DNA from: Yuukianura sp. NJ FZ-2021
Lineage: Eukaryota
Length of the DNA: 64,000 nt
Direction: 5' to 3'
Assembly: GCA_046563655.1 (NCBI GenBank)
Contig: CM102286.1
Span: forward strand, 7,812,001-7,876,000
Shown: positions 9,521 to 64,000 of the stretch, in pieces
Layout: each line of letters begins with the position of its first letter
How positions within the stretch are numbered: the stretch's first letter is position 1
Program-made: the position numbers and the translations under genes
Notes under the pieces: model-generated
Told to the model about the DNA's origin: nothing
Database searches by the model: none
The model's input: only the letters and a program-made list of their open reading frames with translations

Positions 9521-10192
9521 GGATACAAGCAAACCAATTGACTTAAAATGAGCTAGATTAGGAAAACTAAAAATAGTATACATCAGTAATCATGAGGACG
9601 ATATTTTAAAAACCATGAGAAACAGAGTTGATTACAAAACGTGAAATTTGATTAGATGTATTTTTTATGCTAAAAATCACAAATTGGTTACGCTGTGTCT
9701 ACTCCTGTTATCGAACTATTTAACAAGTAGTTTAACTAAATTTCTCTACCTAGATTGCCGAAGGACGTATGTATAATTGTATTTAAATGTTCTCCATACC
9801 TATTTGTTTACTTTGTGATTCCTTTATCTGGGAATTTGCTTGATTTTGGCATTCTACATTATTCATCTCCCGCCTACTTATCAACTCCCTATTCTCCTCA
9901 TCAGGCCTAAAAAAGAAAAACAATGATGATAATAAAATATTAAAATTGATGCAGACAGCTAGGGAATACAATGGCCAAGAATTTAAATCCACGACCCAGT
10001 TCCTCCCTCAAATTGCCTTCATTACAGTGCCAGTTTGTGTTGAAACATTACTTTGTTTTGTGATTTTGATTTTTATTCCTTCGATTTTTTTTAGTTTTGG
10101 TTTCCCGTTTGCGATTATTTTGGACCCAGCAAAATTTTTTGCGGAAGTTTTGTTTTGCAAAATTTGGCACCCTGGACTCGTACCAAGAGTTT

Positions 10193-10284
10193 ATGTCCCT
10201 ACTCCTAGCCCCGCCGACCTTGACGCCACCGCCGGACCTCCAGCCACCCAGGATGGAACGCAGAGGAAGGCCGAGGAATATTCT
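10193..10284 (+). CDS. nub: nub coding exon 1 ([30 protein letters not shown], ends phase 2)
   Basis: GC-rich patch with ATG at 10193 and consensus donor CT|GTAAGT at 10285; phase matches the 17836 exon. Confidence 0.65.
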
Positions 10285-13200
10285 GTAAGTAGTGCATGCT
10301 TTTTGAATTTATGCTTTTTATGATACAATTTCAAAGAAATACAAAAAGGTTCGGTATTTCACAAAATTTGCGGAAGAATGATTACACTGAACCTACTACT
10401 AGTATATTTGAAATTTACTCAAGCACTAATAGGTTCAAAATGCAAATGAAACTTACTCATGCATCTGAATCATGTTCAGTATTCAGATGCAAAAGGTTAA
10501 TAATCACCTTATTACTAACTAAGCTGACGTTATCCGTAGAATTTCACTTAATTTTGAGAAAAACATATAAAAATTTTAAAGAGTAAAAGTGCACATTATG
10601 TTTAGATATTTTGAACGACATAAAATAAAGTGAAATGAAATATGCTTAGAAAAGTGTATGCTGAGAATTGAGATACGATAAAAGTTGATGGTAAAAGTGA
10701 GTGTGGGTATAAAAAGATCGATCATTTTTTGGAGTGAAAGTTGCGGGAGAAGGCGTAGGGTGGTCCCCTGCCCTAAGAAAGTTGTCACTTCAAATTGACA
10801 GTTCGTGGAAATGTCTCCTGGCGGGGCTTCCGTTTTTCATTATTCTTCTGAGTTCTCCTCGAACCCCTGCAAACTTTCTTCCATGATAATAATTTTTTAA
10901 AAGTCTATTTCGATTCTCAGCAGAGTGCAGCAAAATTGACTCAATTTGAAAATACAATTGTGCATAAACTTCAAAAAAACAACAAATATTATAGGCGCCT
11001 CGATATCAATTTTCCAAATTTTTCATAACATATTTCTAGAAAGTTTCTAAAATTTTACATTAGCTATAACAACTTTCTTTTAAATTGCACATTAAATCCA
11101 AAGCAGAGTAATTTCACAGTAGGGTTTAAGGTCCACTTGACTTGGGTACTAAAATTAAAGAGTCACTTTCTCTTTATATTCGTCCAAAAAACAAGAGAAT
11201 AATACCTTGAGTTTCCAAGTAGAAACCTCATTCCGAATAGTAGGGTTCCAGATAACAGAATCGAAAAAAGCAGGAATTCACACTGTAGCTTAGAGCAGCT
11301 CCAAATCTTAAACTCATCGAGCTTACGGTACTCACCTGCCTAACTTAAATTAACTTAACCTAACATAATATAAACGCAACCAACGTAAGGTAAAACTTTC
11401 GGTCATATTGGCATGCAACTATGACTTTCACCGAATTATAACGTATGTTTCGGTAAGACTTTCCTCCAGAAGTAGCTTGGAGGGGTTGTAAGGTTAGGTC
11501 CCTATTAGGGAATTTACGGTAGTTGGTAACTGAGGAGTAGACTTAGCATTAAATTGGTATTATTGATCACTCAGCTGGAGGCAATTAATTAGAGGAGTTT
11601 GTGACTGTGGCGGTGTAGGGACGGGGACGGCGGAAGGAGGCGGAATGAAATGAAAGGCCCATTATGAGACTTTCTCTTCCAGTTGTAAGTAGCATTAAAC
11701 GTGAATGATTATCATGTCCTGCCAAGAGGGATCAGGAATGAAGCAGAAAGGGAATTTCATATTTCTTTTTCTATTATTTCTTAGCTCATTTCTTCTGCAA
11801 CTGACCAAAGAACAAGGAACGGAAAGCACAACGTTCCCCTCAGCTTTCACCAGTACTATTATTAGGCACCAGATATGCCTTCTCGGCATCCATGTCATTA
11901 GAATGGAATTAAGAAGTAAAGCGCTTCCCCAGGGCTCCTTGGCTTTTGCGCAATGCGAAACTACTTTTCCTAAAAACATAAACCCCGCTTTGAACAATAT
12001 TTGGAATTTAAAGCCAGTTTGAGTCATAAATCAAATATATTTCAAAAAAATTCTTGTTTGATTTCTTTTTCTTCCGAATTTCACATTTTTCTGGCCTAAG
12101 AACGCGATTTGGATCGTCGGCGCATCATAATTGCTTCTTCTGCGCATAAAAATTGCTGCATGGTAAAATCTCGAAACGAGGTCGGTAGAAAGCTGTAAAA
12201 AAAGCGCGACATCTTAATTTGGAATTTTTCTTGTGCCTCATCACGGATTCTCGGGCAGTGGCTGTGATTGTGTTAATAAGAAGAGGAGAGAAAAGTCTTG
12301 GTTCCATAAAGAAAATGTTGCGAGGGAGAGAGCGAGAGAAAGCACTTTGTGTGAGCCCTTAATTTCGTGCAGAATTTCTTTTCGAGACTTAAGGTTGTGG
12401 GGCTCCTCAGAAGTTATAATGTATGGCCACCATTATGAGTTTTGGAGTGTGCTGAATAAGTTATACACTTTACGTACATAGTACTTCCTTCCCTACTCCT
12501 CTAGCATATTAAATGGCATCAAAAGTCTTAGATGGAGCCTTGGTCATTCCTTCCAAAAAAGCAGGCACTAAGACGCAGTAATAAGGGCTCAGAAAGTATA
12601 AAGAGAGAAAGTGATGGAGAAAGCAGCGGGAAAGTGAGCTTAATAATATTATATTAGTAGACAGTGGGGAACGGAAAATTCCTTTTAGTTTCTCCCGCTC
12701 CGAATGGATTTCATCCGCCTCCTACAGAAAAAAATAATAATCAGGCTTTACGAATTCAAGTGCACGTTCGGGTGCCTCCTACTTCATTAACGCCATTTCC
12801 ACTTTCCCACCAAAACCTTCAGAATTCATTCCCCTCAGTCACAAACTAATTCAAGCCACCTCTCCACCTACGCAAACAATTTCTGCCCTAGCATGTTTCT
12901 GAAAAATAAAATGGGTTTGAAAAAATAAAATAATTTTAAGAAAATGGCCTGTTTTAGGTTGATTTTAAAACCTTAGCCGAAAATCAGCTACGAAAATTTT
13001 CTTGTCTATCTGTGTGGGAGCTGAAACCTTATTGAATATGTTGTGTTTTAAACAACTTGAAATGTTATCACGCTACATGATTCATGCTCACAGGAATGCT
13101 TGACTAAAAATAAAAATTCTCGCACGAAAGGAATAGTCATGAGTGTGCTTTGTTATTTGTGAAATGATAACATAAGTTAGTTGGTTTCTTATTGTTTGTA

Positions 13201-25200: not shown

Positions 25201-28200
25201 ACGGATAGACCCACGAGCTAGTCTTCGCAGCTTCAGATCCAGCGGTCGACGGCCGCCCAAAGCAAAGACCCTGGTTAGGCAAAGCCATAAGTGCTAGGCA
25301 AAAGCTTGAAAAAAGGAAGAAATGGGCATTTTTTGGGTAAGAACAGTGAAGTTTGGTGGTGTGGAGAGTAGTGGAGAGGCCTAATAGCGTTTGCGCTGGT
25401 TCGGACGGATGGTCAGTCAGGATTTTAGTGTGGGATGAGGCTGTGGAAGACTCTATCTTCACTTGTTCCTCCTTTGGATTGGACGTTGTTGGTCCAAGAG
25501 GTCAGAGTCCCGGTTTTCAAAAGAAAGTGAAAGTACTTTCTTCAGCATAGCCTTCCATCAGACACATGTCAAGCACAGTAGTCACAAGTCATTATTGTCA
25601 TCTGACACACTTTTATTCCGGTGAGCTGCAATGTTAGACACTTCTAAAAAAGCTTAGAGCTAAGAAGAAAGTGAAAGTTGGAAAAGTGAAAGCATTTAAC
25701 AAACTGTTGACAAAATTATTCAACTTCGGCTGCCAAAAACTCAAAAATTCCAAAATTGACAAAAGCATTCCAGATTCTCCAGAATTCAATTTGTCACTTT
25801 CTCCAAGCTGAAAATTTGAATTTTCGCACAAGTCGAATAACCATTTCCAAAAACTGATTTTTTTTTTGATGTTTTGTTTTCAACACCCTGAGAGACTGGT
25901 CTCACATGGTTATTTCTGGTAATCTCCTAATTCCAGCAGAGGAACCAATAGACTTTTCAGCCCGGGGTATGAAAAGAGTCATTGATCAACACCAGCAGCA
26001 GCGTCTGGCTCAAATTAGCACCACGGCCAACCTCCACCTCTCCACCAATCACCTTCCAGTTGGTCTCCTTGGCCCTGGTCAACTGCTTGGGCAGGTCAAT
26101 GGAGGTCACCATTTATTATCTCCTGGGTCCGGCATGGAACGAAGTCTCAGCAGTGGTTCCAGCAGTTCAACTGCCAGCAGCAGTAGTCCAACGAGCGGAC
26201 AGAGTCATTCCAGTACTTCAAAACTAGCAAAACTGTCCGGCTCACAGCAACCGCATCACATTCTCCTCATGAATAACAATAAGCTGAGCTCCAGTTCCAG
26301 CTCCAGCGGTAGTCACAAACGCAAGAACTTCAATAATAACAACAACTCCAGTCAGAACAATAATATCAACAATCATCTCAATCTTCTACACAATCCGAAT
26401 ATGCTACTCTCTCGACTTATTTTGCCAACTTTACCGACAGCAGCCCTTGGCCCAGTGGCCAACTCCAGAGCTTCTCCACCCTCTGCAATGATCCATCACG
26501 GTCAAGGTCAAAGGTCAAATTCACCAGGAAGCGAACTCAGCCAAGAGTCACCACCGAATCATCGCTCCCACAACCATCACCACCATCATCATCACCGACA
26601 TTCTCAGCAACCCCATGACAACTCTTCAGATGAGGACGAAGAGCCGAGGGATTTCAGAGGTAAATTCAAAATTTCTGAAAATTTTCAACAACCACTTTCC
26701 GCTCGAGTGGATTTTTAATCAGAGCAGTATTGTTGTTTTGAAATTGCCCGAAACTTTTCCACCCCCACGCGTAATGCTCTTATTCACCCACGCAAAAACC
26801 TCAATAGTTTTGTCAAATTTTGATTTATTCTAAAGTATTTTGAGGTTAAAATTTTGATTGCTACCTTTTCATGGTAGGAGGGCAGAGGTTAGGGTCACTC
26901 TTGTGCTGGACAAAGCCGTTGGACCCATTGTTACGCTACGGATTAGATATGCTTCCATTATGTTCAGAAGCCATAGGCAGGCAAACGTTTTTCGAAAAGC
27001 GTAGGAGTAGTGCAGGACAGATTTTATTATCATAATTTTGTTCCCCTCTGCTTTGCAACCCACGCTATAGTAAATTTGGTTAGGTAAACAAAAGTCCTAT
27101 AGTTACTCCCTCCATACGAACGTACTTCTGGGTTTTGAACAATTGTCAATTGAGTAGTTCCAAAGTTCGGAATGGATTCAATGCTCCACTTGGATGAAAC
27201 AGAACAAACTTTTTCTTTCTGTCATGGATTATTACGTAAAGGTCCAAATCAGTCTAGATGTGTTGAGGGTGAACTGATTTTCTAAATTTTTGAAAAAGCA
27301 CTCTGTGCTTGAGTGATTGAATTTAAATTCATGCGGGGGTGGACTGGAGAGCTCACAACTACGACATGCTGTAGAAGGGGATGATGAATTTTTGGAAGAT
27401 GAGAGGACGGATGGAACTTATTTTTGGGGTTGAATCATATATTCAATTTTTAGAAAAACGGAGGATTTGAAATTTTGGAATAATGGTTTCTATGGTCTAA
27501 TATTACTCCCACACAAGGGAAGGGGGGCCCTTTAAGTAGATCTCTGCATGCAAGGACCTATTCAGATGAAAACCTGCTGCTAAAAGTGGGGGACTTCATC
27601 CCTGTAGAGATTACATGCGGGATGCAGGGTTCCCTTTTTTCTAAATTTCTAAATGAGCGAAATGTTGAGGCTAACTTGGAACTTTAGAACAGTTCCCTGA
27701 CCAACCCTAAAGTAAGTACCCTTGACTGAGCCTTTTGTTTTGGTGGTGCCTTTACAATCTCTAAGGGCTCCTATGCTCCAGACTAACTTAACTTAACGTA
27801 CAAAATAGATTTCTCGCCTTATTGCCTAAAGTTCCCTTTGTTCTTGCCTAAACAAGGGGCTTAACATTTTCATTTCAAAATTTCAAAATTAGACGCTTTT
27901 CGGTCTAAACTCTCTTCCAGATACAAAACGGCTTTCATTTTCACCAAATTGAGTATTTTCCACTCGCCTCGTTTGTGTTAGTTAAAAAAAAACAGCTAAA
28001 TTTTATTAATTGAATTAATACTTTTATAGTACAAAGTCTCGTAGTTCTTTACAGGAAAAATGGATTGATAAGGTTTTGCGATGATATTTTTAGTTTAGAA
28101 TTTAGGCAGTAGTGTTTTAATGTAACATTTAAAATTTTCATGAAAGCCTCAAATCTTTTGTTGAATACGGGAAATTGGAAAACTTAAGAGTCAGTTATAA

Positions 28201-34200: not shown

Positions 34201-37200
34201 GTTTTTGGGGTGAAAAGAAGAAGTTTTAGGGAATATTGGACACATGCACTCTCCGCTTGCTTTTCCTACTATACAGTATTCCGGAACTTTATTCTGACTA
34301 ACCTAACTTATATACTAAAGTAGGTTTGGGTGTTTGCATCGGACGTAGTCGGAGGCATGTGGGAACGCCAGAGCCGCATTTTCTCCTCTGTCACACACTA
34401 CAGTACTAACCGTGTTGACAACAAGAACTTTTTTCACTTTCTTCTTTTTGCTTATTGCTAAGCATTAGAGTAAGCCCCCCTCCCCCCTCCTGCCGAAAAA
34501 ACAAGTTTCAGAGGGAGTTGCGGGTATTTCAAAAAAATATGAAAAAAATGAAAAAATTGTGGTGACCAATGTGATCGTTTTTTCTACTTTTCCTATTTTC
34601 TGCTTTACCTAAAAGCACCCCGTCACTTCCAGATGTTGCTTCCAAACTTTCTCTTTTTCTTATTCTTTTGCCTATTTCTGCCATAGTCCTCACCTCACTC
34701 AAGGGCCCCCGAAACTCCTTTAGTGAAAGGTTAGTTGCAAGGGAGAGGGAAAGCGCTGTAGTTTACATAGACATGATTAGGTTATATATATTACGTCTAT
34801 GCGTCTAACATTGACTATGTTTATGGCGGAACTTCTTAAGGAAATCCGTTACTGACTCCTTGTACATGCATCACTTCTGGACAGGAAAAAACTTATTCCA
34901 GACAAAAATTTTCATTCAGCCTTTCCTTTTCCATGTCCCCGGTCTCTGCCCAATTCAATCTCCCTCTTTTATTACATTACACAAACAATTTTTTCCTATT
35001 TCCGTAAAATTCTGGAATAATATTGAGCCCTCCAGATATTTACTTTCTCCAAGTGGAACTGGGACTAAGGGAGCTTCTGGTACAGCAAGAACGGAGCACA
35101 AGCTAACGTTGTTCGGCCTTTCCGGTGGAAGTCCCTTGCCAATTTTGTTATTCATACTTACACGAGGGAACGCTAGGTTGCTTTATTATTTCCGCCAAAT
35201 TTCAAATTTGAAAGCATGGGTCAAATTTATGACCTACGGTTCTTGTACTAGCAGAAATTTCAAACGCCTAATTAAATGTGCACAGATTTTAACTAACACT
35301 TTGATTGTATAAAAATTCTCAATCGTGATCGCTGTGCACAAATTTTGAAACTTTTGTTACACTACTCAAATTTAAGATTTGGAAGTTTTTGCACTTTCAG
35401 AAATTCTGGCTCCTGGTTCAAATATTTTTGAATTTATGGTTTGTTTGAAATTCTGAATTTTGGGGCACAGGCTTGGAAAGCTGAATCATGGCACAAAAAT
35501 CTCAAATCGGCACTTTTAGATATGAGAAAAATGCAACCACAATCATGTATTACACGCAGGATGACTGGAAAATTATAATGTAGGAAAACATGCATCAATA
35601 GACAAACAGGGTTGATACATAATTTTGTCCACTTTGTAAAAACTGCGCCGAAAACTAAAGTGAAGTTTGGAGAAAGTGACATGCAATGTGGCATGTGGAA
35701 ACGACTCAATTTTCCTTTGAATTTGGTGCGATGAGTTGTTTCCATGTTATGTTTAGGAGAACATTACAAGTTACGAAGGGGGTTTCTGGAGAATGATCGT
35801 ATAATAACATAATGCAAACAATGAGGACAACTTTTCTCCAATTTTTGAAAAAAAAATTGTGGATTCAAGGAATTGCTGTGTGGTGGTGTAATTTGTAGGA
35901 ATCTCTTCATGAGGGAATAGACGGATAATAAATATTTTAGATTTGAAGTTCCCACATGCTCCTACTTAATAATAAAAGTTAGAAACAGAGTGTATACACA
36001 ATTCAATTACAAAACGAAAAAACGCCAAGCTAGTTCTTTTATTATTCTCTGCTTCTATCTCTTTCTGAATAAGTAAACAATCAACGTAATATTTCTGTGG
36101 ACTCTACACAATTCTTGTAATCTTTGGACCAGATTACTTTCCTCTAGAATTCTAAAACAGAATTCCTAGAAGTTCAACAGAAAAATAAAAACATTGTTCT
36201 GTTAAAGTTGACTTGAATACAACTGCTGAAATTCACATTTTGCTCTAAACTAATTCATATTTCAAAAGAAACTCCACCAACAAAAAACTTGCCAATTCTG
36301 CCAAAGTTTTAGAAGAAAGAAGGTTATAAAAGTTTAGCAAAAATTTCATACTCGCCAACAATAAAATAAGAAATTTAATCCGTCAAAGTTTTAAAATTAT
36401 TATAAACGAAGCTCAAGTTTTTTTTAAAGACATTGCGTTCCGTTGTTCTTTTTTTAATAAATATACAACCATTAAGTTTATAGTATATAAATATGGTTTC
36501 AACTTAATCAGATCTTTACTGACGCCTTTGACGCGAGCATCAGTATTTTTCAGAACACTGAAAATTGGTAGCAAGTCTTCCAAAAACTCCAATGGCAAAT
36601 TGTACGCCAATTGCTGACTTGACAGGATTCCAATCCCTTTCATGAAGGTTTCGTCTAATTTTGCAAATATTTGGTTGCAACTCTGCATTTTATGTGTAAG
36701 CATCATCATTATTCCTCGGCGCAGCACAGAAATTTCGTACTCAAATTGGAACAGGTCCTGAGATTCTGGAGGTTTTATAAAAAAAAAAATAATTTTACTG
36801 TTTCATTTATCGAAATTTTAAAAAAATATACAAATGTTACCTATGTTAGAAAATTTTGCGTTTAGAGGTTTTAGGTTAAATTTACGCTAACTCACCTTGG
36901 ATAAAATCCTCAACTATATTTTTGAGTAGAATTAACGCTTTTGGATCTGTGTTAGGGCGTTGCGTTGGATTTGTTTTTCTCCGAAGTGTTTCCGATTGTC
37001 GATTAGCTCGTTCTACAATTAGCCTAGTCGGTGGATTCCTCCTTTTCAAGTTCAGACCTATTAAAATTTAGCTTACAATTAAGCTTTCTTTAGTTTTCAT
37101 CGTTGTTTCATTTTACCTATGATTTACACTATGATTTTTTAAAAATATTTTGACTACACTGACCACTTACGGATTGAATCCCAAATATTGCGGGGTTTTA

Positions 37201-40200
37201 AAGGAATTTCCAATCCTTTTGCAAGAAAGAACAAATTTGTTCGATCTTCGTACTTTGGTACGCCTGGCATTTTGGTTATCACTAAAAAAAATCAAGTGGA
37301 GAAACTTAAAATATGTTTCCGTTAATTCAAATTTTTTAAAACGTTAACAAACTCACAACGCAGGGTACAGGAATGGTGTTAATTATTATAATTACTGTTG
37401 TATTGTAATCGATGGTGACGTGATGTGTTGCTGTGTGGTTGAAGTTTAAAAAAGGACTAAAGTAATTAAAAGTCCACATTAATAAGCTTATAGGGTTAAC
37501 CCTATATATTGGTTCTGGAACTTTCTCAATTCTTAATGGGCTTCCTTAATTGTCACACGAAATTAAGGCTTTAAAAACGGGTAACTACGTCTTGTATCAA
37601 CTGTAGACAGAGTTGCACATGCAGCAGTTCTCTCCAAACTTAAAAAACTATGTTCCGATGCAGTTAGTTTGCAGTGTTAGCACATATCCCCTTCAACATT
37701 TGAATGACCTCAGTGACTTTCAAAACTTTGCATAGCGAAAAACGACATTACATTTTCTTTTAGAAATCCCACTGTGAATATTTTCTTAAACTCAATTATT
37801 CCCAGGCATTACAATTTTTTTTATTTATAGAAGTTATATTCAAAGTAATCAAAATATTGGTAATGCATGAGTCAGAATCAGGAGACAGGAAGGAGTTAAG
37901 TATAGTAATCTTTATCACTGTTTTAACTAAAGTAGTAACTTAACAGGAGCTTTAAAACTATCAAACGTGTCTTATCAAAGCCTTTTACAGTATAATTGTA
38001 AACCCCAAGTTTAAGACAATTTTACCTTACCTGAAACCTATTTATTGAAGAATTTCAAAAAAATTAGAAACAAAATTTCCAAAATTGCATTTAAAAATAG
38101 GTTGGGAAACCCAGAAATTGCACAACGAATTCGCAAATGTGGTAAGCGTTTTTTTTTTTCAAAATAAAATTGATTCAGAATTTTTCTGTTTGTTTCGGAT
38201 GAAAGCCATTCGTTGTGCCCCTGGTTCAAAGGACTTGAATTTATGAAGACTGAATAATATTAAATATAAAAAGGTTTATGATTTCCATTTTCATGCTCAA
38301 CATTTTTTCGGGGGAGCAAAAAAAAAAAAGAATGGGGTCAAAGTCAGTAATTCAGACTAGGGTAGAGTAAATTTCAGTAATGGTTTCTGGGCACATGGTG
38401 CACTGGCATTACTTTTTTTTTCTACATTAACTGGTTCTTTTCATTGTTCAAAACGCTGGAACACAATTCATTCTGTCCAGACTCTAAATCTACACAAGTG
38501 TGAAGTCACCGTAATTGATGAATTTTATATGGCAGGCTATATGATGAATCCAAAAAATTTGGGTGTCAAAGGGTTTGCTACACTTTTCAGAAGAAAAAAA
38601 TCTCTTTCAAAATCATTTCATAATTATTTTTCCAGTGCCATTTTTATTTTAATAGCCCTTTTTGGAAAAATTGTTGCATTTTTTGAATAAAAATCAAGCA
38701 AGGTAAATTTCGAACGGGTTTTATTTTTCTTTCCATTGGTGTGTAACAGCTTTTCATTTCTCCACTTTTTTTTTCTTAAAAAACTGAAAAAAGTGCTGAA
38801 ATATGGGTTGTTAGTGTGGCGTAAAACAGGAAAGAAAATGGTTTTAAATCAGATCCACAGCTGGTAACATCCGAATACATATGTAGAAGGGGTCCAATTT
38901 CATGTAACTCCCGAAATCCCCATAAGACATCATGATGTACGAGATTTTTTTAGTCAGAGATCTCACCCCTTTGAGACACTAAAGGACTCGTGTGCCTCAC
39001 CCAATTCAAGCAACAAAAAATATCAACCCTCTCGAGCACACTTTAACAATTTTTTATAGCAAACGTATAAACAAGCCACTTTTTAACCATAAGCTCCGCC
39101 TTGTTTTAAAATTTAAAAAAGTCAAAGTTCAAAAAGAAGTTTTTCAATGCCGAAAGTAGGCCAAAGGCGATAAAATTTTATTTAGAAAATCATTGGAAGG
39201 TTAAAAATAAAAATTTGAGATGCTCGCGATTTTTTCTTCAAAACTTTAGAGTTTTTTGTTCAACTTTAGTAGTCAAAAAGGATTCCGAAAACGAGGTTTT
39301 TTTCTTGAGAATTGTGAAAAATGTTAAAACTTTTTCGTTCCCATAATATTTCCATTTCCAATTTCTATTGAAAAATTTTGATGAGTTTTGAAACCTCTCC
39401 CGTCGACGATTTTCACATTTGGAGAAAAAAAGTTTTACCTTTCTTCACTTCTTTCTTCAAAATGCGAAGAAAGTCCGTTTTCTTTTGAAAGAAAAATACG
39501 TGGAAAGTGTATGTGTCAGAGACAGATTCTTGGAATATTTCTTTTTCCAACTCCATTTTCTTTTTATCGCGAAATACAAAATGGAGGCGTTTTTTGAAAC
39601 CATTTCTGAATGCATATTCAGCACACACAAGAAAGTAGTTTTCCTTCCACTTTCAAATAAGAGCGGATTTCATTTGAGTTTATAATGGAAGAAAGTACTT
39701 GGAAGGTTTAATGCAATCACTGGACCACACACCAAATTCCAAAATCCAATAACTCCTATATGTCTGTCCTTCTTCCTGGAAGGAAAAGGAAAGTGGACTT
39801 GCGTCCATTTCTTTCAAATTCAAAATTCCCTCCTCCGTTTTTGAGCTGGACATTCAAAGGAAATGACTTTTGTCCATGCAAGGCTTTCTCCCCTTCTGCA
39901 ACGAACAGTCTTTTCCACTTTCACTTCCTTTTCGTCCTCCGTGCCTCATTCAAGTGAACTTTGAACTCTCGGGAAGTGTTGGGCAATTGAATCCATCATT
40001 TCCTTTGTACTTTCCCACCTTCCAACTGCATCTCCCTTTCCCCACATCATTTAAATGGACTTTATTTGCTTTGATGCTTCTTCCTTTTGGGGTTTCAAAC
40101 TTTTACTTGCTTTTTCAACTGAAAATGCGGCCTAGCTTAACCTAGCTTCAAAAATATCTTTGCTCAAAAAGCGAAAATTAATACAAAAATTTGCAAATCC

Positions 40201-43200
40201 GAATACCTCTGTTGATTTTTTTGACAAAATTGTTGTGAAGCTTTCAACTCCGGATTTTCTTTTCATTTCAACATTTCGTGAATCTTAATTTTGAAAACAA
40301 AATTTGAATGTTGCGTTTTGCAGTGAAAAAGACTCTCGAAGAGTTTGCTGGTTTAGGCAAACGCACGTAATTTGAATGGCTTCACCCTCGCAGTCTGCCA
40401 CCTTCGCAGCTTCAGCTTTTCACCTTTCTTCACGCATTATTTATGTGAGCAGTTTGAAATGTCCTTTGTGTGGGATTTCTAAACCTGGGGATATCCAGGT
40501 TACTTTGTCAATGGACCATACGGAATGCATAGTGTGTCAAATGAAACAGTGAATAGTAAAGGACTTTGAAGCGTAGGTGGATGGAGTAGGGGAAACTCCG
40601 GGTAGAATTGAAAAGAATAAGAATGGAAGTTGGAAATGAATCAGAACCAAAGAAACACCTTTTAATTGACTCAATTCACATTTCAATACTCACAGCAGTA
40701 CTCCAACTGAACCCGAGGTCTGTTTTAATAGGCTAGGTGTTATTTCTGGCTTGCCCGTGACCTATGATTTTAAATCTTAACAATACATAAGGTATACTGC
40801 CAATGCCTAGAAGTGACCCTGATCACACTCCTCCGTTTAAAACTTGAAGCGGAACTTTTGTTTACAGCCATTAGACTCTGCAAACCTACCACTTTTCAAT
40901 GACTCTTGAAATCTTGAAATTTATTTCATAACTCAAAATTTTTGCAATTGTCTGGAAAACACTGGAGCAGGTCCGCTATGAAGTTAAGGTGACACATACT
41001 CCATGTTATGCTGATTTATACGTGCTATTTTCTTGCTGTTATGCTAGGTTTTCTGAAAAAGTCGATATAACTTGACCCTCGTCTACTCTAGGTTTGAGCG
41101 GATGATGAAGTCCGAAGTGTCGAATATAATTAGACGCCAGGAGGAGAAAGCTTTCTCTCAGCCCAGCGATTTCTGGTTCCTTTTATCCCTCCAGCCGCAT
41201 TTCCAGCAGCGTCCAGCCTAGCCTTTCCCCGTTTGAACTTTCCCTCACTTTCCGTTTTTTCCATTGAGCAGACGAACACAGAAGAGAGCGGGAGTCAATC
41301 GATACTGGGGTGTCGGGGGAGGTCAATTGACTCAAGTCCAATTGAAGCAGACCCACAGCTCTTGTGCCAGCAGCCACCGAAACTCCAATTCTACTCCGCT
41401 CCAGTCCAGTTCCAGCGAATCCACTCCAGTTTTCTATGTCCAGCTGAAGCTCTTGTGTCATGGACATGTTAGGAGGTTAGAAAAGAGTAGGGAAATTGGA
41501 GAAGTGTGGTGGTGGAGAAAATTAGGGCCAAAAATGGAAATACCTCACTCGATTATGTCAACTTTACCCGGCGATTGGAAAGTGGCAGTCAATATGCTTT
41601 ATTGTGGAAGGAGGCTTTAGATTTTAGGCCTAACCTAACCTAACATTTCATTTTCCGATCAAAGTGGAAATTGGGAATTAGATGGAAAATGGATCTAATG
41701 CTACTCTATCGCTCAGTCGACTTTCCCAAAGGAAAAGGAAAATTCATTTGAACCTAAGAAGTGAGGCGTGTAATTAAAACTCCATTGTTTGTCTTATTTC
41801 ATTTCAAAAGGCAACAGGGATTTACAATTCAGTTAGGATTTACAACAATTTCAATTTCAGATTCGTACTAACCTTACCCAAAAAAATAGTAAAGACTCAA
41901 AAAAATATTGAACTTGAGTTTTTTTTTATAAAAACAAAAGGCACGGACGCTTCTTGTTCCTTTGTTCCGAAAACCAAAGCGTCTATACCCTTGACCTTTC
42001 AAACTTGAACTTGCACTTTGAAAAACTTGAAAAACCAATTTTGTTAAAGTAGCATTTGGATTTTTAAGTGTTTTTAGAGGAAGTGTCATAATTCATTTGC
42101 TGACTCGACGCACGACATGCAAATATTAAGTTTTCAACTTGCCCATTGTTTCGTAACTTTATGAGTCAAGATCATAAACAATGCAAATTCTTGCTTTTCG
42201 AGAGTTTTAATTTACAACAACTCGTTTTCTTCCGACAAAAATAATTAGCAGTTTTCCAAATTATGAGTTTCTTGAATTGTTGAAACGAAACTTTGCATTT
42301 TGAAAGCGGGATTTGAGCAAGAAAGAACCAATTTTTAAAAAGTAATTACAGGACTGATTCTTTTGTTCTTTTGTGAAAATAAACAGATACATTTTTTTCA
42401 AAAGGAAAACGCAGGCGCCACCGCTTCCTTAAGTGCTGCTTTACAGTTATGTCAAAGGTACACATGCGAAATACTCTTGACCTGCTTGACATGTGGTGTG
42501 GTCTTGCGCAGACGCACTTCTTCGGATTGGAAATTCAATAATTCCTTTGCCAACTTCTCAAATTACTTTTAATATTTCCGCATGACAATTTCAAATTCTG
42601 GAAAACGGGCAAAAGAAAATTGAAGGGTATGGCTGCTGTACTTTTTGAAACCTGACTACCACCACTTAAATTTGAAGAGTAAAATATTCATGAGCATATG
42701 TTAAGGCCCTCGATGTTCCGAAACGGCTCATGCTAATGCATATAATTTTACAGTTTCTTGGAAAAGTGTGAGCCCTTCTGGTTTAGGTTTTGGGTCCTTT
42801 ACCTTCCTTAACTGAAACCATAAGGGTACGTGTCCTTGAAAAAAAGATCCTGGCTGTATGTTTTTTGAAGGGATAAGGTCATGAGGTCTTGGACTCAAAC
42901 AGTTGTCAGGCATACTAAAAGAACTTGTAGTGTTATTACATGCAAAAGATTTGAAAAAGCAAACAGTTGTGTCCAGAATTTTGGACTTGGGTAGCCAAAA
43001 GTTGTGAAAATAGGAGGGAGGATATGCATTTTCAAGAACACACATGGAGGAAATGCTGGACTTGGAATAATTAAGGCGAAAAATCTGCTACATAAGGTCG
43101 TTTTTACAAAATTTTTGGAAAATGATGCTCGACATATGTAAAGCATCAAAACCATTTCCTCTCAAACACTAGCGTTCAATTTCTTACTTTGCCCTGCCAA

Positions 43201-49200: not shown

Positions 49201-52200
49201 GAGCTTTCTAATGTGTGCTCCAAACTAAAGATAATGAAAATGAATGTGATACGGCGAAGATGTGCTGGAATTGGAGGTAAAGCGTAAACTTTGGTTCAAT
49301 TAATTGAAAATTAACACTTTCACCAATAATTACAATTAACCTAACCTAAGCAATTTAAATAGAAGTTCGCACCTTGCTAATTGAATTGTTTAACAATCAT
49401 TTCCTGCATATATACTTTCAAATCCGAAAATTGCAAATTGCTATAAAGTTTATTAGAATTTGAAAAATGTTTCGATTGAGTCAATTTCAAAACGGTGGAC
49501 AATTGTTTGAAACTGAAGTGCTGTCAATTTTGAAAAATAAAACATTTTAGAAAGAAAAGTCTTCTAAAAAATGAATGTATATTAATTTTTTTCATTTTTT
49601 TTTGTTGATTTACAGCTGAACCACTGAAGCGTCTCGAGCGAAGTTTAAATTCTCCAGCCACAGGTTGGTAACAGTTTGCTTTCTCCACTTTCTTCCGGAT
49701 GACTCCTTAGGTCATGCCTCCACTTGATACATTTTTGATAGTCTAAATGCACTTTCCAACCCTCTGACGGAACAGTAGTCCTACGATAACATCATCTCCC
49801 ATGATTGATGCTCAGAGTACTCCCCTACCCTAGTCAAAATCCAAACAATTTTTGAGGGGAAAGTTAGAATGCATGTGTTACATAATAACGACACTGATTT
49901 TTTTAAGTGCTCTATCTCCACTACTCCAGCTCTAGAATACTATTTCTGAGTCACAGAAAACAAATTCAAGGGCCCCATTCCCTCCCTTTACACATTTTCA
50001 CTCAAATTATTATAAAAACTACTTCTGTCATATAGTAACAATAGAAAATGTTCAATTTTTTAGCATAATAAGAGCACAAAATCACAAAAAGGGACATTTA
50101 CATATACGGACTAAATAGAATTTTTCACGTATTTACGTGCAAAGCACAAGGGGGCACAAAAATGAAAAAAAAGTGTCCCTCTTTCTATTATTCTTATGAG
50201 ATTTTGAGGATCTGTGGAAATTGAATAGAAATAGGGAAATAAGGGAACGTTATACGAAGGATTTCCTACTTTTCCACCAGCATCTGTGTCATTTCCTTTA
50301 CATAAAAAACACTTTTTCAGGGAAAAAAACGAAAAAGTAAACATTGGTCCTTTTCATTTCAGTTTTGCGCAATTTGAATTGCATATTTTTCTGTTCGTTT
50401 TTGACGGATCTTCTATTTAAAAGACTCATCCATCATTCCTTTATTCACTTTTTTTTTTTTCAAAAAAAAATAGTTCAAACTCCCATATCCTCCTTGCTGA
50501 GCGTCACATTTCACCCGAAACAGGATTTTTCGGTTTCTAACATAAACCGTTAACTTTTTTTTCAAAATGTGTCACACTAAAAAAAAAGGGCCAGTGAAAA
50601 CTGAATTTGAAATTTTGAGATGTGCATGATGTGAATCGTAATTTGAGGATTTTGTGCACTTCGGCAATATTTTTCAAAAGAGAGATCAATTAGAATCGGA
50701 GATTCCGTTTTTACTTATACAAAAAGATGGTTGAAATTCGTCATAGCCTAATCCGAGTTATAACTGGCAAAAAAATAGTTTGAAACGCTTTCAAAAATGG
50801 TGTGTAATGTATAAAATTAAGTTCAATTGAACCTAAGTTTTTGAAATTCGGATTTTTACAAACTCAAAGCAATTTATCAGATTCTTCCAGCCTACGCAAC
50901 TTTTTATAAACTTGTTAGTCTGTAAAGAAACTTCATGAAGATGATTTACGATGGCGAAGTACGGCAGGAAGATTCAGAAGAGGAAATTCGGGTATGTAGA
51001 TGAGCCGAGCAGAAATTGTTAGTCTTCTGGGCGTGGCTTGGGGATGTTTTGTCGTGTGTATTCCTTAGAAGGGTTGTGCATGTTTTTTATAGGGAAGGTG
51101 GAGATGTGAATAATTTGAGGACTGTCGCTGCACAAGGGAAGCCCAATGACTATGATTCAGTTGGATTTAAATTAACCCCTTTGAATTTGGTGTCTATTCA
51201 CAATTTAAATTTATGCGGGAAGCATTCTGGCCTTCCTTGGGCATCAAGCTCCCATTGCGCGCATTCACTTCTTCAATTATTTAATAAGCTTAGAGCCTCT
51301 CACTTGCCCCAACCCACCAAGGAAAGGGGTAGACGCAAAACCCGGGTATTTTTTTCAGCGGGAGCCACTAAATCCTTTAAGGTTCTTCGAAATCCTATCA
51401 ACTCCGCACTACAAAATTTTGTAACGACAGAATCCGCAATTTCAATTAATTACTTAAATTGTGGGCAAATTTAAGGCTTTACAGTTAACATAATTCTGGT
51501 GAGAAAAAAACTTGAATTTTTTTAAATAACTTTTTATTTCAAAAACTGTCACCGATTTTTAGTTTTCCTAGTTGGTATTAAAAATTTTGTAACGCAGATA
51601 CATGAATCATAAACTTTGAAAAACATTTTTATTTGCAAATCCTCTTGTTTAAAAATTTTCGCGTTGAAATTTTTTTGGACAAACTCTTCTGTTTTTAAAA
51701 TTTGTAGACAAATTTATTTTGTCAGTGTAGTAGAAGTTTTCCAAAAAAAAATGCCTTGGAAGGGTAAATAGCGAGTTTTTTAATTTGGAATAGTTGAAAG
51801 CGAAACCATTAGCGTGCGTTTGGATTATTCGATATTTTTGTAGTCACACGGGTTGAGGTAGGTTTTTTGAATTTGAAAAGAATATTTGTTCAGAATAAAA
51901 AATTGAAATGAAGGGTTTTATTTTTGGAAAGATGAAAGCTGAAAGATTATTCTTTGGATTTGGGAGGCTGCAAGCTCACCTTCAGCAGCAGTAGATTCTG
52001 AAGTCCCGATCAAGGCCTAGAAGTACCTCATATCTCACAGATCAACGTCATCATCCCAATCATCATCTCCCCATTCCAAGGGCCCTACCCCTTCAAGTCC
52101 TCTTTCTAAAATCAGCTACCAACCAACTGTAAATATGTACGTAGGCACAAAAAAGTTTTGTTACTGTCAACCCCTTTGCTTTTTTGGACCCGTGGAAGGC

Positions 52201-58200: not shown

Positions 58201-61094
58201 TTTTTTTTTTTTGTTTTCCAGACAATGGCATCAACGGTGATCTTAGCGAAGAGGACGAGCGGTCAGGCAGTGAACTGTGTGAGGATGGGGACTCCATGGA
58301 CTCTGACCGAGTGGGGGCCCTTAATCTGGTCACTTCGAATGACCGCTTGTCACATGTCAACAATAACCCTGCGCATCCGCACATTCCCGCCAAAAACGGA
58401 GGTGACAAGGCCAATGGGCATGGACAACTTGGAACTCCACCGGGAATTCCGAATCCTGCCGTTCAAGCTGCAATTGCAGCGCAAGTGCAGCAGGTAATCC
58501 TGCATTCTGTTAATACAGTTAATCCTAATATGAATTAGACACTTGCCGTTAAGTACCTACTTAAGTTATCCAAATCTCGTAACGGTAAACATACCTACTA
58601 CTAATTCAATCAATGCAATGGTTTGAATAATCATAGTATTTGGTCAATACAATTACATGAATGTTGTTGACTTTCTTGTTATGCACATGCATATTGTCAT
58701 CTAGGATTTACATTCTTAGTTTTTTGCATAAAACCTAATGTAAGATTAGACCACACACGGTGATATAGTTAGCCATAGCTTCTGAGCCCAGAAGCAGGGA
58801 TTATGCGGAATGTAAATTAGTGAAAGACTACGGTGGTGGTCCGATAGGGTGGCAGCAATGACCGGCTTAAGGATGCGTTTTCGAACATTAGTCGAATTGC
58901 ATGAAAATAGCAATTTGCATCAACTATTAGATAACTTGAATTAAGGCTATTCTTTCCATTAGAAGAATCGAACTTTCCCTATTACACGGGGAACGACACT
59001 TTGTTAAGGTCAGTTAGTTGTGAGCAGTGCTTGTATGAATACGTTAGAATATTTTAGTCTCTGTCCAGCAGCACTCCAGAATATCGAAAAGAAGTAAATT
59101 AGCACAAATTAGCCTGGAAATTTGTAATTCTTGACAATTAGTTTGCTATTGCTCTAAATATACTTATTGAAAACAGAAGTGAGATTTAACTATTATTTGT
59201 AATTTTTGACATTTCCAGTTGATGAGCATTTCGACGAATCAGCACTTGTATCTCCTCCAGAATCAGTTGACCTCTCCAGGCGGCGTGTCAAGTCCGGAAT
59301 TTCAGGTAAGCGTAAAGTCAAACTAAAACGTCTATTGTAATAAGTTTGTAGTGTTGTGATTCGCGCCAATTTTTTGCTACGAATTAAAGTATATGCGCGT
59401 TGTTTCGTTGTTGACCTCTGCGCATGCGCAAGTTGTGGACTGTTGGAAAATGAAGGAATTTGAAATTAATGTTGAAATTATCAATTGCAGCAAGCGTTTG
59501 AGCAACTTCGCCAGCAACAGCAGCAATCGCTTCAGCTTCAACAAACGATTCAGCAATTAGTCATGTATCAGACTGCTAGCGGTGGAAATCCTGCACAACT
59601 TCCACCATCCCAATCACAATTCTACTTGCAAAATCAGGTGAGCAAGTATTACGCATACGTTTTAAATCTGCCAGGTTTGTTGCATGCACAACTCAGTTTC
59701 TGCTGAAGTAAATTAAACTAAGATGTTAATTATGTTTTAATTAATTACAATCTGTTTTTCACTAGGGTTTATTGCACTCAAGCCTCTTCTCGTCTGCTAA
59801 CTATGCCAACTTGGTCTCTCCTCCACGAAGGTCATCCAATTCCACTGGTCCACTGCCACAACAGTCACAGTCTCAGCAGGTTAGCAGATTCAACTGCAAT
59901 TACGCAATTTGTTATGAACTTTGACTAATTAATAACAAGGTTTTCTGTTTTTTCATCACAGGCTGCCCAAGCTGCTGCAGTGGTCCAGTCTCTTCAGCAG
60001 CATTTGGCAAAGAACAACTCCCAGCATCATCATCATCACCATCACGGTTCATCCCGTCATCACGCATCTTCTCAGCAGCAACACCAACATCCGCCCCAGC
60101 ATCACCATCACCAAATCCAACAAATACAATCACAAGCCAACACTACTGTTTCAGCATCCCCCTCCCCCACGTCTCCACCCCCGCAGACCCAAGTCACCCA
60201 CCATATCAAGTCATCCAGCACACCAAGGCTTATCGTCGACCAAGCCATTGATGAGACAACGGATCTAGAGGAGTTGGAACAATTTGCCAAAACGTTCAAA
60301 CAACGACGCATCAAGCTGGGTATGCTTACGGAATATTTTCATTTTACACTTTACAGTTACCAAACTAACATGAAATTACAATTTGTCGATACTCCAGGGT
60401 TCACCCAAGGAGACGTTGGACTGGCCATGGGGAAACTTTATGGAAATGACTTTTCTCAAACAACCATTTCTCGCTTTGAGGCTCTCAACCTCTCATTCAA
60501 GAATATGTGTAAACTGAAACCACTTCTGCAGAAATGGCTGGAAGATGCTGATAACTCACTCAATAATCCGAGCTCTCTGTCTAATCCGCATACTACACCT
60601 GAAGCCATTGGGCGCCGACGCAAGAAGCGGACTTCCATTGAAACCACAGTCCGTGTCGCCCTGGAACGAGCTTTTCTCCAAAACCCTAAGCCCACTTCCG
60701 AAGAAATCACGACGCTAGCTGATAGTTTGACAATGGAGAAGGAAGTAGTTCGAGTCTGGTTCTGCAATCGGTAAGTACTCTTAAAATTTTAGCAACCAGC
60801 TCTCCTTTGAGCTGCTTTTACACCAATGATCTTGTCGTTCGTCGATTCCTTAGTGACTGTTTTCTCTTTTGGAGTAGGCGACAAAAGGAGAAACGTATCA
60901 ACCCACCGTCGGGATCCCTCGGCAGTCCACCGTTGTGTAGCCCTGGACCGCACTCGAACAATATTCAGCAGCACATGTTTGGATCACCGCATGGTGTCCA
61001 TAATGGACCGTTGTCACTGGTCACGACGTCGTACAATTCCAATCCATCGACACCAAATTCCAATGGTCCCAATATCAGTATCAAACAAGAGTAA
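10193..61094 (+). CDS. nub: Class II POU-domain transcription factor nubbin/pdm (Oct-1/Oct-2 group), long isoform, about 832 aa
   Basis: Manual model join(10193-10284,17836-17903,25937-26659,49616-49663,58222-58493,59219-59305,59491-59637,59766-59879,59962-60319,60398-60770,60878-61094) = 2499 nt. All introns are GT-AG and phase-compatible, with no internal stop. POU-specific domain [39 protein letters not shown] and homeodomain [24 protein letters not shown]. The 3' exons are secure; linkage of the 5' exons is inferred. Confidence 0.85.
16573..16604. repeat. Perfect 16-bp tandem duplication GGTGCTGGAAGTATTT x2
   Basis: Read directly from the sequence. Confidence 0.85.
17836..17903 (+). CDS. 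nub: nub coding exon 2, 68 nt ([22 protein letters not shown])
   Basis: Acceptor ttctgttgattgcag, donor AAG|GTAAGC; phase 2 in and phase 1 out, exactly bridging exons 1 and 3. Confidence 0.7.
24472..25011. repeat. Cluster of degenerate TTAGG/CCTAA telomere-like motifs
   Basis: gttaggttaagg...ccctaacctaaccctaa, caacctaaccctaacc, aacctaaccttaacc, aaacctaacctag and ggttagggtagg within about 540 bp. Confidence 0.45.
25937..26659 (+). CDS. nub: nub coding exon 3, Ser/Asn/His low-complexity region
   Basis: Core of the 270-aa ORF 25906-26718; tandem acceptor ttcCAGCAG (25936/25939), donor GAG|GTAAAT at 26660, phase 1-1; composition typical of transcription-factor regulatory regions. Confidence 0.8.
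30493..30554. repeat. Near-tandem duplication of an AT-rich unit of about 28 bp (aatatttYatgaaaattaagttttttt)
   Basis: Two copies starting at 30493 and 30527. Confidence 0.7.
36413..37270 (-). CDS. Nested antisense multi-exon gene, uncharacterised protein of about 204 aa
   Basis: complement(join(36413-36765,36896-37057,37171-37270)). Start AAAATG, donors GTAAGT (37170) and GTGAGT (36895), acceptors ttaatag and ctccag, both junctions phase 1, 615 nt with no internal stop. A 5' UTR intron (37282-37356, GTGAGT...ttttag) lies upstream. The 3' end is uncertain. Confidence 0.72.
49616..49663 (+). CDS. nub: nub 48-nt microexon ([16 protein letters not shown])
   Basis: Long T tract ending tttacag, donor CAG|GTTGGT, symmetric phase 1-1 and stop-free in the nub frame. 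Confidence 0.65.
55235..55247. promoter_or_regulatory. Perfect IR-1 palindrome AGGTCA-T-TGACCT, candidate EcR/USP ecdysone response element
   Basis: Exact match to the idealised nuclear-receptor IR-1 element, in the nub intron upstream of the 3' exon cluster. Confidence 0.55.
58222..58493 (+). CDS. nub: nub coding exon ([16 protein letters not shown]...AAQVQQ)
   Basis: Poly-T acceptor ttttccag, donor CAG|GTAATC; phase 1-0. Confidence 0.88.
59219..59305 (+). CDS. nub: nub coding exon ([29 protein letters not shown])
   Basis: Acceptor atttccag, donor CAG|GTAAGC, 87 nt, phase 0-0. Confidence 0.85.
59419..59430. promoter_or_regulatory. NRF-1/Erect wing palindrome TGCGCATGCGCA
   Basis: Perfect consensus inside a 185-nt nub intron. 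Confidence 0.35.
59491..59637 (+). CDS. nub: nub Gln-rich coding exon
   Basis: Acceptor ttgcag, donor CAG|GTGAGC, 147 nt, phase 0-0. Confidence 0.88.
59766..59879 (+). CDS. nub: nub coding exon ([10 protein letters not shown]...QSQSQQ)
   Basis: Acceptor tttttcactag, donor CAG|GTTAGC, 114 nt, phase 0-0. Confidence 0.75.
59962..60319 (+). CDS. nub: nub exon: His/Gln tract and start of the POU-specific domain
   Basis: Acceptor tttcatcacag; ends ...RRIKL G|GTATGC. Confidence 0.95.
60398..60770 (+). CDS. nub: nub exon: POU-specific domain, linker and most of the homeodomain
   Basis: ctccag|GG TTC ACC CAA (GFTQGDVG) through WFCN CG|GTAAGT. Confidence 0.97.
60878..61094 (+). CDS. nub: nub terminal coding exon ([10 protein letters not shown]...SIKQE*)
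   Basis: Acceptor ctcttttggagtag completes WFCNRRQKEKR; stop TAA at 61092-61094 followed by TAG. Confidence 0.95.
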
Positions 61095-62469: not shown

Positions 62470-63393
62470 TTAATCTTTAAAATCTCTGGATTTGTGAAAT
62501 TTTTCCCTCACCGCTTGCTCCAAAATGACATGGATCTTCTTGCAACCCTCAATGGCTACCCGAATGACGTCGTCCAAGTAGAGTAAGTGCAGTAACTGGG
62601 ATTGTTCCAGGACAATGATTTGTGTATCCGACGGAAGGATTCCAACAGTAAGTTCTGGACACCCCGTTCCTCTCTCGAACGAATTGATATCAATCATTGC
62701 AATGGAATGACTCAAGGTCGCCGTACAGGCCACAACGTAATCCCGGATTGGAATTCCAGCATCAACAAGTGCCAAAGTCGTTGCATTTATGCCTGAAAAT
62801 AACAAATTCCCGTTTTAATTCATTTAAGTCCAGATAATACAATAAAACTTGGAAACAAGGATGTAAGTTATAAGAAAGTACATGCTGCGTAGCTGCCTCC
62901 GTCATCTTGTATCAACTCCACGTAAATGTCCACTTGGGATCCAGGAAACGTATCTTGTACAACGATGTTGTCAATTAAAGAGTTAAGGTTGGATGAAATT
63001 TCAATTGACTTCCGGTCGTTCTTCGTCGACTTCTTCCGCTCGTTTGACGCAAAGCAGGCAGAACTGTATTCACAGTTGATCGTCATTTTGTCTGGGTTGC
63101 CTTGCATTCGCTTCTGAGAATGTCGCACCTGATAACGATTTTAAAAGTACACCGTAATTTCATGGTCTAGTATAATCAAGTAGAGAATTTAATCCAAAAA
63201 ATAAAATAACCTCATGCGGACCATAAACTGCTGCCATCACTTTTGTATTGCCAATACTAAATGAAGCGCTTCCACTCGCTTGGGGATGAAAAATTCCCAT
63301 TTCACATTCAATTTTGCGAAGGTCCAAAGGTGCACGTCCATCAGCTCGTATCTCATGGTCCCAGAGGTCATCGAGATGTGTCCTTAAAGCCAT
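62470..63393 (-). CDS. EXOSC4: Exosome complex component RRP41 (RNase PH-like), 250 aa
   Basis: complement(join(62470-62792,62882-63128,63211-63393)) with introns of 89 and 82 nt (GT-AG). Motifs RADGR, GNTKVMAAVYGPHE, DRKSIE and SQVDIYVELIQDDGGSYAACINATTLALVDAGIP. Confidence 0.93.
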
Positions 63394-64000
63394 CGTTCGA
63401 TGTGGATATCTAAAAGTAAAGTAGATTTTTCCAGTAAATCTCATTAAATTACGATTTCACGCCCAGGAATTTGCATTAACCAGAAGCTGAAATACACTCG
63501 ACAGGATGTCATCTCATTCATTTTCTCATGCGATCACAAGACACTTTAGACTTCAGTGCTTGGTTTCTTTGGTCGGCGTCAGTCAAGCTGACACTACTGT
63601 CAACGTCAACTCAGGATACGTCTTTTCTAGATACGTGTCGACGTGTGATAAGTAGTTAACAATAACGCAAGAAATCCACGTTCAAGGCTCTCCATGATCA
63701 AAAAGTTTATATTAACCGGAGCTAAATCTTAAATTTTTAACAGTAATCGATTTTCGTTTGCCGATTCAACTACTACATTAAATCCCACTTCAGGGAAAGT
63801 AGAACACCTCGGGCGTTAGGTATTTTCGAATTTTGGAAATCAAATTTCCAATTCAAACAAAACAAAAAAAAAAAAAAAAAAAAAACCAGCGGACGCTACT
63901 ATAAAATTGTGCTGCTTTTATAATTGGGTTCTCAAAAACACCGGCGCGCGTATTTTGAACTTATCTTCCAAAACAAGAGAGAAAAACCAATCTGTACTTT

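Follow-up and report, generated by a model that had tools for sequence, protein, structure and literature searches.

Nested antisense within a nubbin intron in a springtail (Yuukianura sp.) is what is probably a real, lineage-restricted, small protein-coding gene, as judged from the DNA sequence. The candidate lies on the minus strand of the window (the whole 64-kb stretch of DNA that was analysed) and is composed of four exons, one non-coding leader exon and three coding exons. The spliced coding sequence of 615 nt comprises 204 codons and a stop, and has no internal stop, whereas the two alternative sense frames contain 20 and 10; introns 1, 2 and 3 each contain stop codons in all three frames. 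GC content is 35–40% in the exons versus 23–25% in the introns. The coordinates, the junctions, the three canonical introns (75, 113 and 130 nt, with donors GTGAGT, GTAAGT and GTGAGT) and the continuous frame had all been put forward in an earlier note on this DNA, and all were recovered on the minus strand.

Domains and closest matches place the host gene in POU class II, as the nubbin orthologue of a springtail and not of a fly. It contains Pfam Pou (1.2e-35) and Homeodomain (1.4e-15) domains, every one of its best-matching solved structures is a class 2 POU (Oct-1, 226 bits, versus 187 bits for class 3), and its best protein matches are ‘protein nubbin’ of Folsomia candida, at 79% identity across 70% of the query. 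Aligning with residues 79–131 of F. candida nubbin is the N-terminal coding exon (25870–26659, plus strand), whose left edge is the limit of the open reading frame (ORF) and whose donor is AG/GTAAAT at 26659/26660. A micro-exon of 48 nt (49616–49663, plus strand, phase 1 to 1), flanked by TTTACAG and GTTGGT, was located by tblastn with Folsomia nubbin residues 130–147 (78% identity over 18 amino acids) and closes, on the 3′ side, the intron in which the candidate lies; the next coding exon spans 58222–58538 (plus strand) behind the acceptor TTTTCCAG. Owing to this conserved micro-exon, the host intron is 26660–49615 (22,956 nt) and not the 31.6-kb gap. The candidate (36038–37508, minus strand) thus sits, as the earlier note had proposed, wholly inside a single plus-strand intron that is still the largest intron in the window, although that intron does not extend over the whole gap. 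The two Folsomia nubbin isoforms retrieved have one common N-terminus, and no short-isoform promoter of nubbin was identified. For a neighbouring RRP41-like exon, the nearest relative assembly encountered is 88% identical.

At the 5′ end of the candidate is a putative TATA-like element, TATATA (37503–37508, minus strand), roughly 150 nt ahead of the first donor, which matches an element reported earlier near 37505 and is the sole TATAWA on the minus strand within 37357–37620; no Inr consensus (TCAKTY) was found. Exon 1 (37357–37480, minus strand) has a 5′ limit guessed from the position of the TATA-like element and ends at 37357, with the donor GTGAGT starting at 37356. It is non-coding for the main frame, as had been claimed, because an in-frame TAA (37381–37379) precedes the main ATG at 37270 without an intervening ATG. 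An ATG at 37479 starts an upstream ORF of 41 codons, which after splicing closes at a TGA (37281–37279) 8 nt before the main ATG. Intron 1 (37282–37356, minus strand; 75 nt, 24% GC) lies in the 5′ UTR and runs from GTGAGT to TTTTTTTTAG (T8-AG), an acceptor that is the richest in pyrimidine among the 11 AGs located 45–250 nt from the donor (16 of 19 positions, with a run of 8). A longer model of 239 amino acids, using the ATG at 37479 and an acceptor at 37252, was rejected, its acceptor being poorer in pyrimidines (8 of 19) than the one at 37281 (16 of 19).

Exon 2 (37171–37281, minus strand; 39% GC) consists of an 11-nt leader and 100 nt of coding sequence, with the ATG at 37270 embedded in CCAAAATGC. 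Its start context, CAAAATG, is found at 36 of the 2110 ATGs in the window and is one that we take to fit the Drosophila start consensus. Intron 2 (37058–37170, minus strand; 113 nt, phase 1, 25% GC) runs from GTAAGT to TTTTAATAG (TAATAG) and has a moderate to weak acceptor (9 of 19 pyrimidines): it is the best of five AGs up to 113 nt, and among the 13 AGs within 250 nt there are 3 with a score of 10, above the 9 of the modelled one. Exon 3 (36896–37057, minus strand; 162 nt, 40% GC) encodes a segment that is basic, contains proline and carries KRR and RRK clusters. It is followed by intron 3 (36766–36895, minus strand; 130 nt, phase 1, 23% GC), which extends from GTGAGT through a T-run to CCTCCAG, the richest in pyrimidine of nine candidate acceptors (14 of 19, with a run of 11). 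The coding part of exon 4 (36413–36765, minus strand; 353 nt including the stop TGA at 36415–36413; 35% GC) specifies 116 whole residues, predicted to be all-helical. Below it is a putative 3′ UTR (36038–36412, minus strand) with polyadenylation-like hexamers at 36379 (ATTAAA) and 36043 (AATAAA), which are weak evidence, such hexamers being frequent in AT-rich DNA.

The predicted product has 204 residues, a mass of 23.9 kDa and a pI of 9.9. Its N-terminal half is rich in proline and in arginine and lysine (pI 10.9), bearing out an earlier description of this half as basic, and the helical character suggested for the C-terminal half agrees with prediction. Structure prediction, which had been proposed as a check, was run with AlphaFold2 from the single sequence of the exon-4 part; the model is helical, albeit of low confidence (mean pLDDT of 53).

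Searches for relatives point to an orphan. No Pfam family matches exons 2, 3 or 4 at E values up to 1, and an exhaustive HMMER search with exon 4 (116 of the 204 residues) returned no credible homologue among 1,835,955,588 representative proteins. Its sole match, a bacterial repeat protein (E of 9.5e-6), was rejected as spurious, the score being a sum over seven repeat stretches; the best single BLASTP alignment of this protein reaches 24.6 bits (E of 0.003 for that one comparison), and the protein also gathers below-threshold Pfam sums for unrelated families. A word-indexed search with exon 4 against proteins of 70–226 amino acids gave no matches, the best ESM Atlas scores (0.79 and 0.77) fall under the lead threshold, and scans of metagenome contigs with exons 3 and 4 yielded pattern matches and no relatives. 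The language-model recognition score is 1244, compared with the 2300 attained by 91 of 100 known-family proteins. No homologue was found even though the annotated springtail proteomes of F. candida and Orchesella cincta were among the collections searched. By these searches the candidate is an orphan, lacking any homologue that could be detected beyond a narrow lineage, in keeping with an earlier remark that no domain could be recognized. Having no detectable family, the gene would be taxonomically restricted, and so either young or very fast evolving; what suggests the label ‘lineage-specific’ is solely the absence of matches, in a poorly sampled clade.

The open frame is kept across the splice junctions more than chance predicts. 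When both strands of the window (128 kb of strand) were scanned blind for ATG-to-stop chains of at least 120 amino acids that cross at least two GTRAGT introns of 45–250 nt, a single model emerged, at the candidate locus. Windows simulated by a first-order Markov process that keeps local composition contain 0.19–0.25 qualifying models each; a length of 204 amino acids was attained by 1 window of 100 in one set and by 3 of 300 in another, under a null that may underestimate the frequency of gene mimics in real intronic DNA. The acceptors of introns 1 and 3, independently of the reading frame, rank first by pyrimidine among the reachable AGs, and 3 of just 16 minus-strand GTRAGT hexamers in the window fall within 462 nt at the candidate, forming the densest cluster on that strand.

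The candidate could nevertheless be a chance look-alike, in which splice signals resembling the consensus happen to precede a 129-codon ORF in untranscribed intronic DNA and are chained with it into an open frame; we consider this unlikely. The exon-4 stop-to-stop ORF of 129 codons is unremarkable alone, as the window is rich in comparable ORFs (it has 69 with 90 amino acids or more), and the plus strand also has one cluster of three GTRAGT hexamers within 600 nt, at 62583. Neither codon usage nor positional composition of the coding type is seen in the candidate, the codon-usage test being weak because its training set, about 1,100 codons taken from three genes nearby, is small and biased in GC. 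With this set, the spliced coding sequence scores a log-likelihood ratio of 0.008 per codon and the exon-4 ORF comes 39th among 68 window ORFs of at least 90 amino acids, while the modelled frame is the best by codon usage among the six frames of the coding sequence itself. GC1, GC2, GC3 and purine at position 1 show no departure from the spread of 50 chance ORFs, so that in codon usage and positional GC the candidate cannot be told from such ORFs. The lack of a homologue, the low recognition score and the low-confidence fold also speak for a look-alike, and models of this kind arise about once per 100 simulated windows, the finding itself being drawn from a scan of very many windows. This 1% rate, however, omits the third strict donor with its best available acceptor, 11 nt before the ATG, as well as the 13-point contrast in GC between exons and introns, the rare ATG context and the upstream in-frame stop, and the real window holds no second model at the same thresholds.

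Splice signals are the strongest evidence for the candidate and coding signals the weakest, a balance that would also suit a real, spliced antisense long non-coding RNA (lncRNA) with a fortuitous or unproductively translated ORF, any function of which would lie in the act of transcribing through the nubbin intron. If transcription begins upstream of 37479, the 41-codon upstream ORF that ends just before the main ATG would lower translation. A run of 204 stop-free codons over three exons at such a GC content is, however, very unlikely in a non-coding transcript, given the stops in the other frames, and the context of the main ATG is favourable; we therefore regard the lncRNA as improbable. Very improbable is that the candidate derives, by decay or strong divergence, from a copied known gene or mobile-element gene (a pseudogene or domesticated fragment); this reading has no positive support, was considered because introns gather insertions, and is opposed by the HMMER and Pfam results above and by the lack of terminal or inverted repeats around the locus and of any match to a transposon or other protein family. 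With its frame intact and its introns in place, the candidate is not a retrocopy. Rfam detected no family in the window.

A short gene nested on the opposite strand, as we propose here, has many counterparts in arthropods. According to the cited papers, nested opposite-strand genes are common in this group, amounting to nearly 10% of Drosophila melanogaster genes (PMC3814207), are often short and young (PMC5174743), and typically arise through the insertion of young duplicates (PMC3814207, PMC5174743). Like those of D. melanogaster, the candidate lies inside one host intron on the other strand, is short, has short introns and has no exon in common with its host; unlike them, it is from a springtail and is known here from sequence. 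Published accounts also describe thousands of species-specific genes in springtail genomes, such as the 3,286 of Tomocerus qinae (PMC8995043), and frequent orphan genes in undersampled clades (PMC6643871). The candidate resembles such orphans in its lack of a homologue, short product, weak codon bias and low fold confidence, whereas usual orphans are annotated, expressed genes and the candidate is a prediction, for which the exhaustive search covered exon 4. Antisense units that modulate their host gene by transcriptional interference are likewise described (PMC5174743, PMC3192792). The geometry of the candidate would permit convergent transcription with nubbin, as in those units, but an effect on nubbin, in the form of interference with the long nub isoform only, is in this case something the earlier note suggested and not a finding. 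Because arthropods have many nested opposite-strand genes as well as many orphan genes, the candidate would be no surprise to a specialist.

If the protein-coding reading is correct, the candidate would be transcribed from a promoter of its own, and its transcript would be spliced in the modelled way and translated into the 204-residue protein. Our preferred guess as to its role, a tentative one based on the KRR and RRK basic clusters, is that the protein is nuclear or associates with nucleic acids. For nubbin, antisense transcription across the host intron would matter only where both genes are active in the same cells and, the host being nubbin, any co-expression would offer a simple test of antisense interference. 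A bolder proposal, which we rate as distinctly improbable, is that the gene was born de novo from nubbin intronic DNA in one springtail lineage and now encodes a translated basic nuclear protein, with its antisense transcription tuning nubbin; if true, this would be a dated gene birth in a basal hexapod, within a conserved patterning gene. Should the candidate simply be real, it would add one unannotated, lineage-restricted gene to the springtail genome, its practical value lying mainly in annotation, and would make a tidy case for how short genes arise and persist in the long introns of developmental regulators.

Carried on the plus strand, the host gene encodes Pou and Homeodomain domains in a protein that most resembles POU structures of class II. 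The top-scoring proteins in the databases are 'protein nubbin' from the springtail Folsomia candida, at 79% identity across 70% of the query, and a class II POU protein from Orchesella cincta; the window accordingly comes from a springtail whose own proteins the collections lack. The N-terminal coding exon, aligning to Folsomia nubbin residues 79–131, ends at 26659 (AG/GTAAAT), and the exon beginning at 58222 follows a 48-nt micro-exon (49616–49663, +; phase 1 to 1) located by tblastn with the Folsomia protein, with 78% identity over 18 residues to F. candida nubbin residues 130–147. Flanked by a T-rich acceptor (TTTACAG/) and the donor /GTTGGT, the micro-exon divides a 31.6-kb gap into introns of 22,956 and 8,558 nt and, being symmetric, could be skipped. 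Nested antisense within the first of these (26660–49615), the largest intron in the window, is the candidate gene, where an earlier note had placed it; the intron edges are set by the Folsomia nubbin alignment.

Two further features of the host locus were observed. Inside the POU-specific domain, at about 60310–60390 (+), is a short, stop-free, in-frame intron through which ORF 59929–60774 reads, adding about 25 residues between KLG and FTQGDVG relative to Folsomia nubbin; Pfam breaks the Pou match in this ORF into two stretches. Scattered through the nubbin introns are GC-richer islands (about 0.40–0.42; 41134–41620 on both strands, 32–34 kb and 54–56 kb) with overlapping 97–127-aa ORFs on both strands and comparatively high codon scores, which may represent regulatory blocks or alternative first exons, or be due to chance.

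Reading the minus strand across 35800–37800 and splicing it by coordinates in a script reproduced exactly the exon boundaries, intron lengths and donors of the earlier model. The leader exon has its 3′ end at 37357 and is followed by intron 1 (37356–37282, 75 nt; GTGAGT ... TTTTTTTTAG), exon 2 (37281–37171, with the ATG at 37270), intron 2 (37170–37058, 113 nt; GTAAGT ... TAATAG), exon 3 (37057–36896), intron 3 (36895–36766, 130 nt; GTGAGT ... CCTCCAG) and exon 4 (36765 to the TGA stop, 36415–36413). The predicted coding sequence comprises 615 nt (204 codons and a stop), has no internal stops and is interrupted by two coding introns, both in phase 1. Each of the three introns holds stops in all three frames, and exon GC (39%, 40% and 35%) exceeds that of the introns (24%, 25% and 23%).

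Upstream of the first donor is TATATA at 37508 on the candidate's strand, the TATA-like element claimed before; no Inr consensus was found. The first exon is non-coding for the main frame, which is closed in the spliced leader by TAA at 37381–37379, with no ATG from there to ATG 37270. The context of this ATG is CCAAAATGC; CAAAATG, which agrees with the Drosophila start consensus, occurs at 36 of the 2,110 ATGs in the window and is unused at the putative starts of three neighbouring genes. Opening at the sole ATG of the putative leader is a 41-codon upstream ORF (37479–37279, −) that spans intron 1 (phase 0) and ends at TGA 37281–37279, where exon 2 begins, leaving 8 nt to the main ATG; it would be part of the transcript if transcription begins upstream of 37479. 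Polyadenylation-like hexamers lie 3′ of the stop (ATTAAA at 36379, AATAAA at 36043).

By itself, the 129-codon stop-to-stop ORF of exon 4 is unremarkable in a window where 69 ORFs reach 90 aa or more, so what needs testing is how unusual the exon chain is. Chains were followed from every ATG on both strands, with GTRAGT donors as the sole exits from the frame and re-entry at an AG 45–250 nt downstream preceded by at least 7 pyrimidines in 15, and the longest chain to a stop was kept. Requiring a minimum of 120 aa and two introns left a single model in the window, at the candidate locus. A looser scan (at least 80 aa and one intron) gave seven, only the candidate having more than one intron, and a stricter acceptor rule gave none, missing the candidate locus as well. 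Upstream of the nubbin coding exons, at 9949–10586 (+), the looser scan also picked up a model of 181 aa with a single strict short intron. At the candidate locus, the longest path in the scan (239 aa; ATG 37479, acceptor 37252) was rejected for its poor acceptor as an artefact of length maximising.

Could such a chain be a chance look-alike? In windows simulated by first-order Markov chains trained on 2-kb or 1-kb blocks, the mean yield was 0.19 and 0.25 models per window; one window in 100 and three in 300 reached 204 aa, and one in 300 did so with three introns. The candidate's donors are three of only 16 GTRAGT hexamers on the whole minus strand and its densest cluster, and one such three-donor cluster is also present on the plus strand. 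Irrespective of frame, introns 1 and 3 have acceptors richer in pyrimidine than any other of the 11 and 9 reachable AGs, that of intron 2 being moderate only. Coincidence is an unlikely explanation; the splice signals and the continuity of the frame make a genuine nested gene, spliced and protein-coding, the probable reading of this sequence.

An antisense RNA that is spliced but non-coding, its ORF being accidental, is less likely still. Within the coding sequence, 20 and 10 stops fall in the two alternative sense frames and none in the modelled one. Trained on exons of three neighbouring genes against the window's non-exonic DNA, the codon-usage log-likelihood ratio of the coding sequence is essentially zero (0.008 per codon), yet the best of its six frames; the exon-4 ORF ranks 39th of 68 by codon score, and neither positional GC (0.44/0.31/0.36 for GC1/GC2/GC3) nor the purine share at position 1 (0.57) lies outside the spread of 50 chance ORFs. 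If translated, the gene would encode a 23.9-kDa protein of pI 9.9, with the basic N-half (pI 10.9, nine prolines) and helical-looking C-half (pI 9.2, predicted helical) described earlier; single-sequence AlphaFold2 gives six helices at a mean pLDDT of 53, and no convincing membrane segment was found (maximum 19-residue hydropathy 1.29). Owing to its basic clusters, a small nuclear or nucleic-acid-associated protein is our preferred, weak guess at function.

Derivation from a known gene or mobile element, as a diverged fragment, is very improbable. Consistent with the earlier claim of no recognisable domain, Pfam, searched up to E = 1, matched none of the three coding exons. No match to exon 4 came from a word-indexed protein search and no relative from metagenome scans with exons 4 and 3; ESM Atlas scores were 0.79 and 0.77, and the recognition value, 1244, fell short of the 2300 that 91 of 100 known-family proteins attain. 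The window contains no Rfam family, and no transposon-like repeats were found around the locus. An exhaustive HMMER search of 1,835,955,588 representatives with exon 4 returned one protein, P0001, a 1,422-residue, bacterial-looking protein built from near-identical repeats; it was rejected as a repeat artefact because its best single BLASTP alignment reaches only 24.6 bits and it also gathers sub-threshold sums for unrelated Pfam families. Absent codon bias, absent homologues and weak fold confidence are expected of a young or fast-evolving gene and equally of non-coding DNA, and so do not decide between the two. The proposed spliced orphan gene stands as gene-like in its splice signals and continuous frame, and as orphan-like in its empty homologue searches.

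At the ends of the window are two other genes. A three-exon gene with short introns (62470–63456, −) encodes an RNase PH/RRP41-like exosome subunit whose best database match is only 88% identical, followed by 69% and 60% from JGI records; the species' own proteins are therefore absent from protein collections. Running past the window start are the first exon or exons (3–800, −) of a FAD_binding_4 gene (Pfam 5.4e-24) with a hydrophobic N-terminus. FAD-linked oxidases of this type are unusual in animals, and horizontally acquired genes have been reported in springtails, so its origin may merit a look.

Transcription of the candidate had been proposed to interfere with a long nubbin isoform only. 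The two Folsomia nubbin isoforms retrieved have one N-terminus in common and differ internally, and neither points to a 'short isoform' that would escape antisense transcription. One account counts just under 10% of the genes in D. melanogaster as nested on the opposite strand (PMC3814207); another describes nested genes as often short and young, ascribing their expression divergence to transcriptional interference (PMC5174743). Orphans are described as especially frequent in undersampled clades (PMC6643871), and the genome report of the springtail Tomocerus qinae gives 3,286 species-specific genes and a GC content of 34.4% for that species (PMC8995043). The candidate, a prediction from sequence, resembles both kinds, and at most it would add to the known nested genes and orphans rather than constitute a new kind of system.
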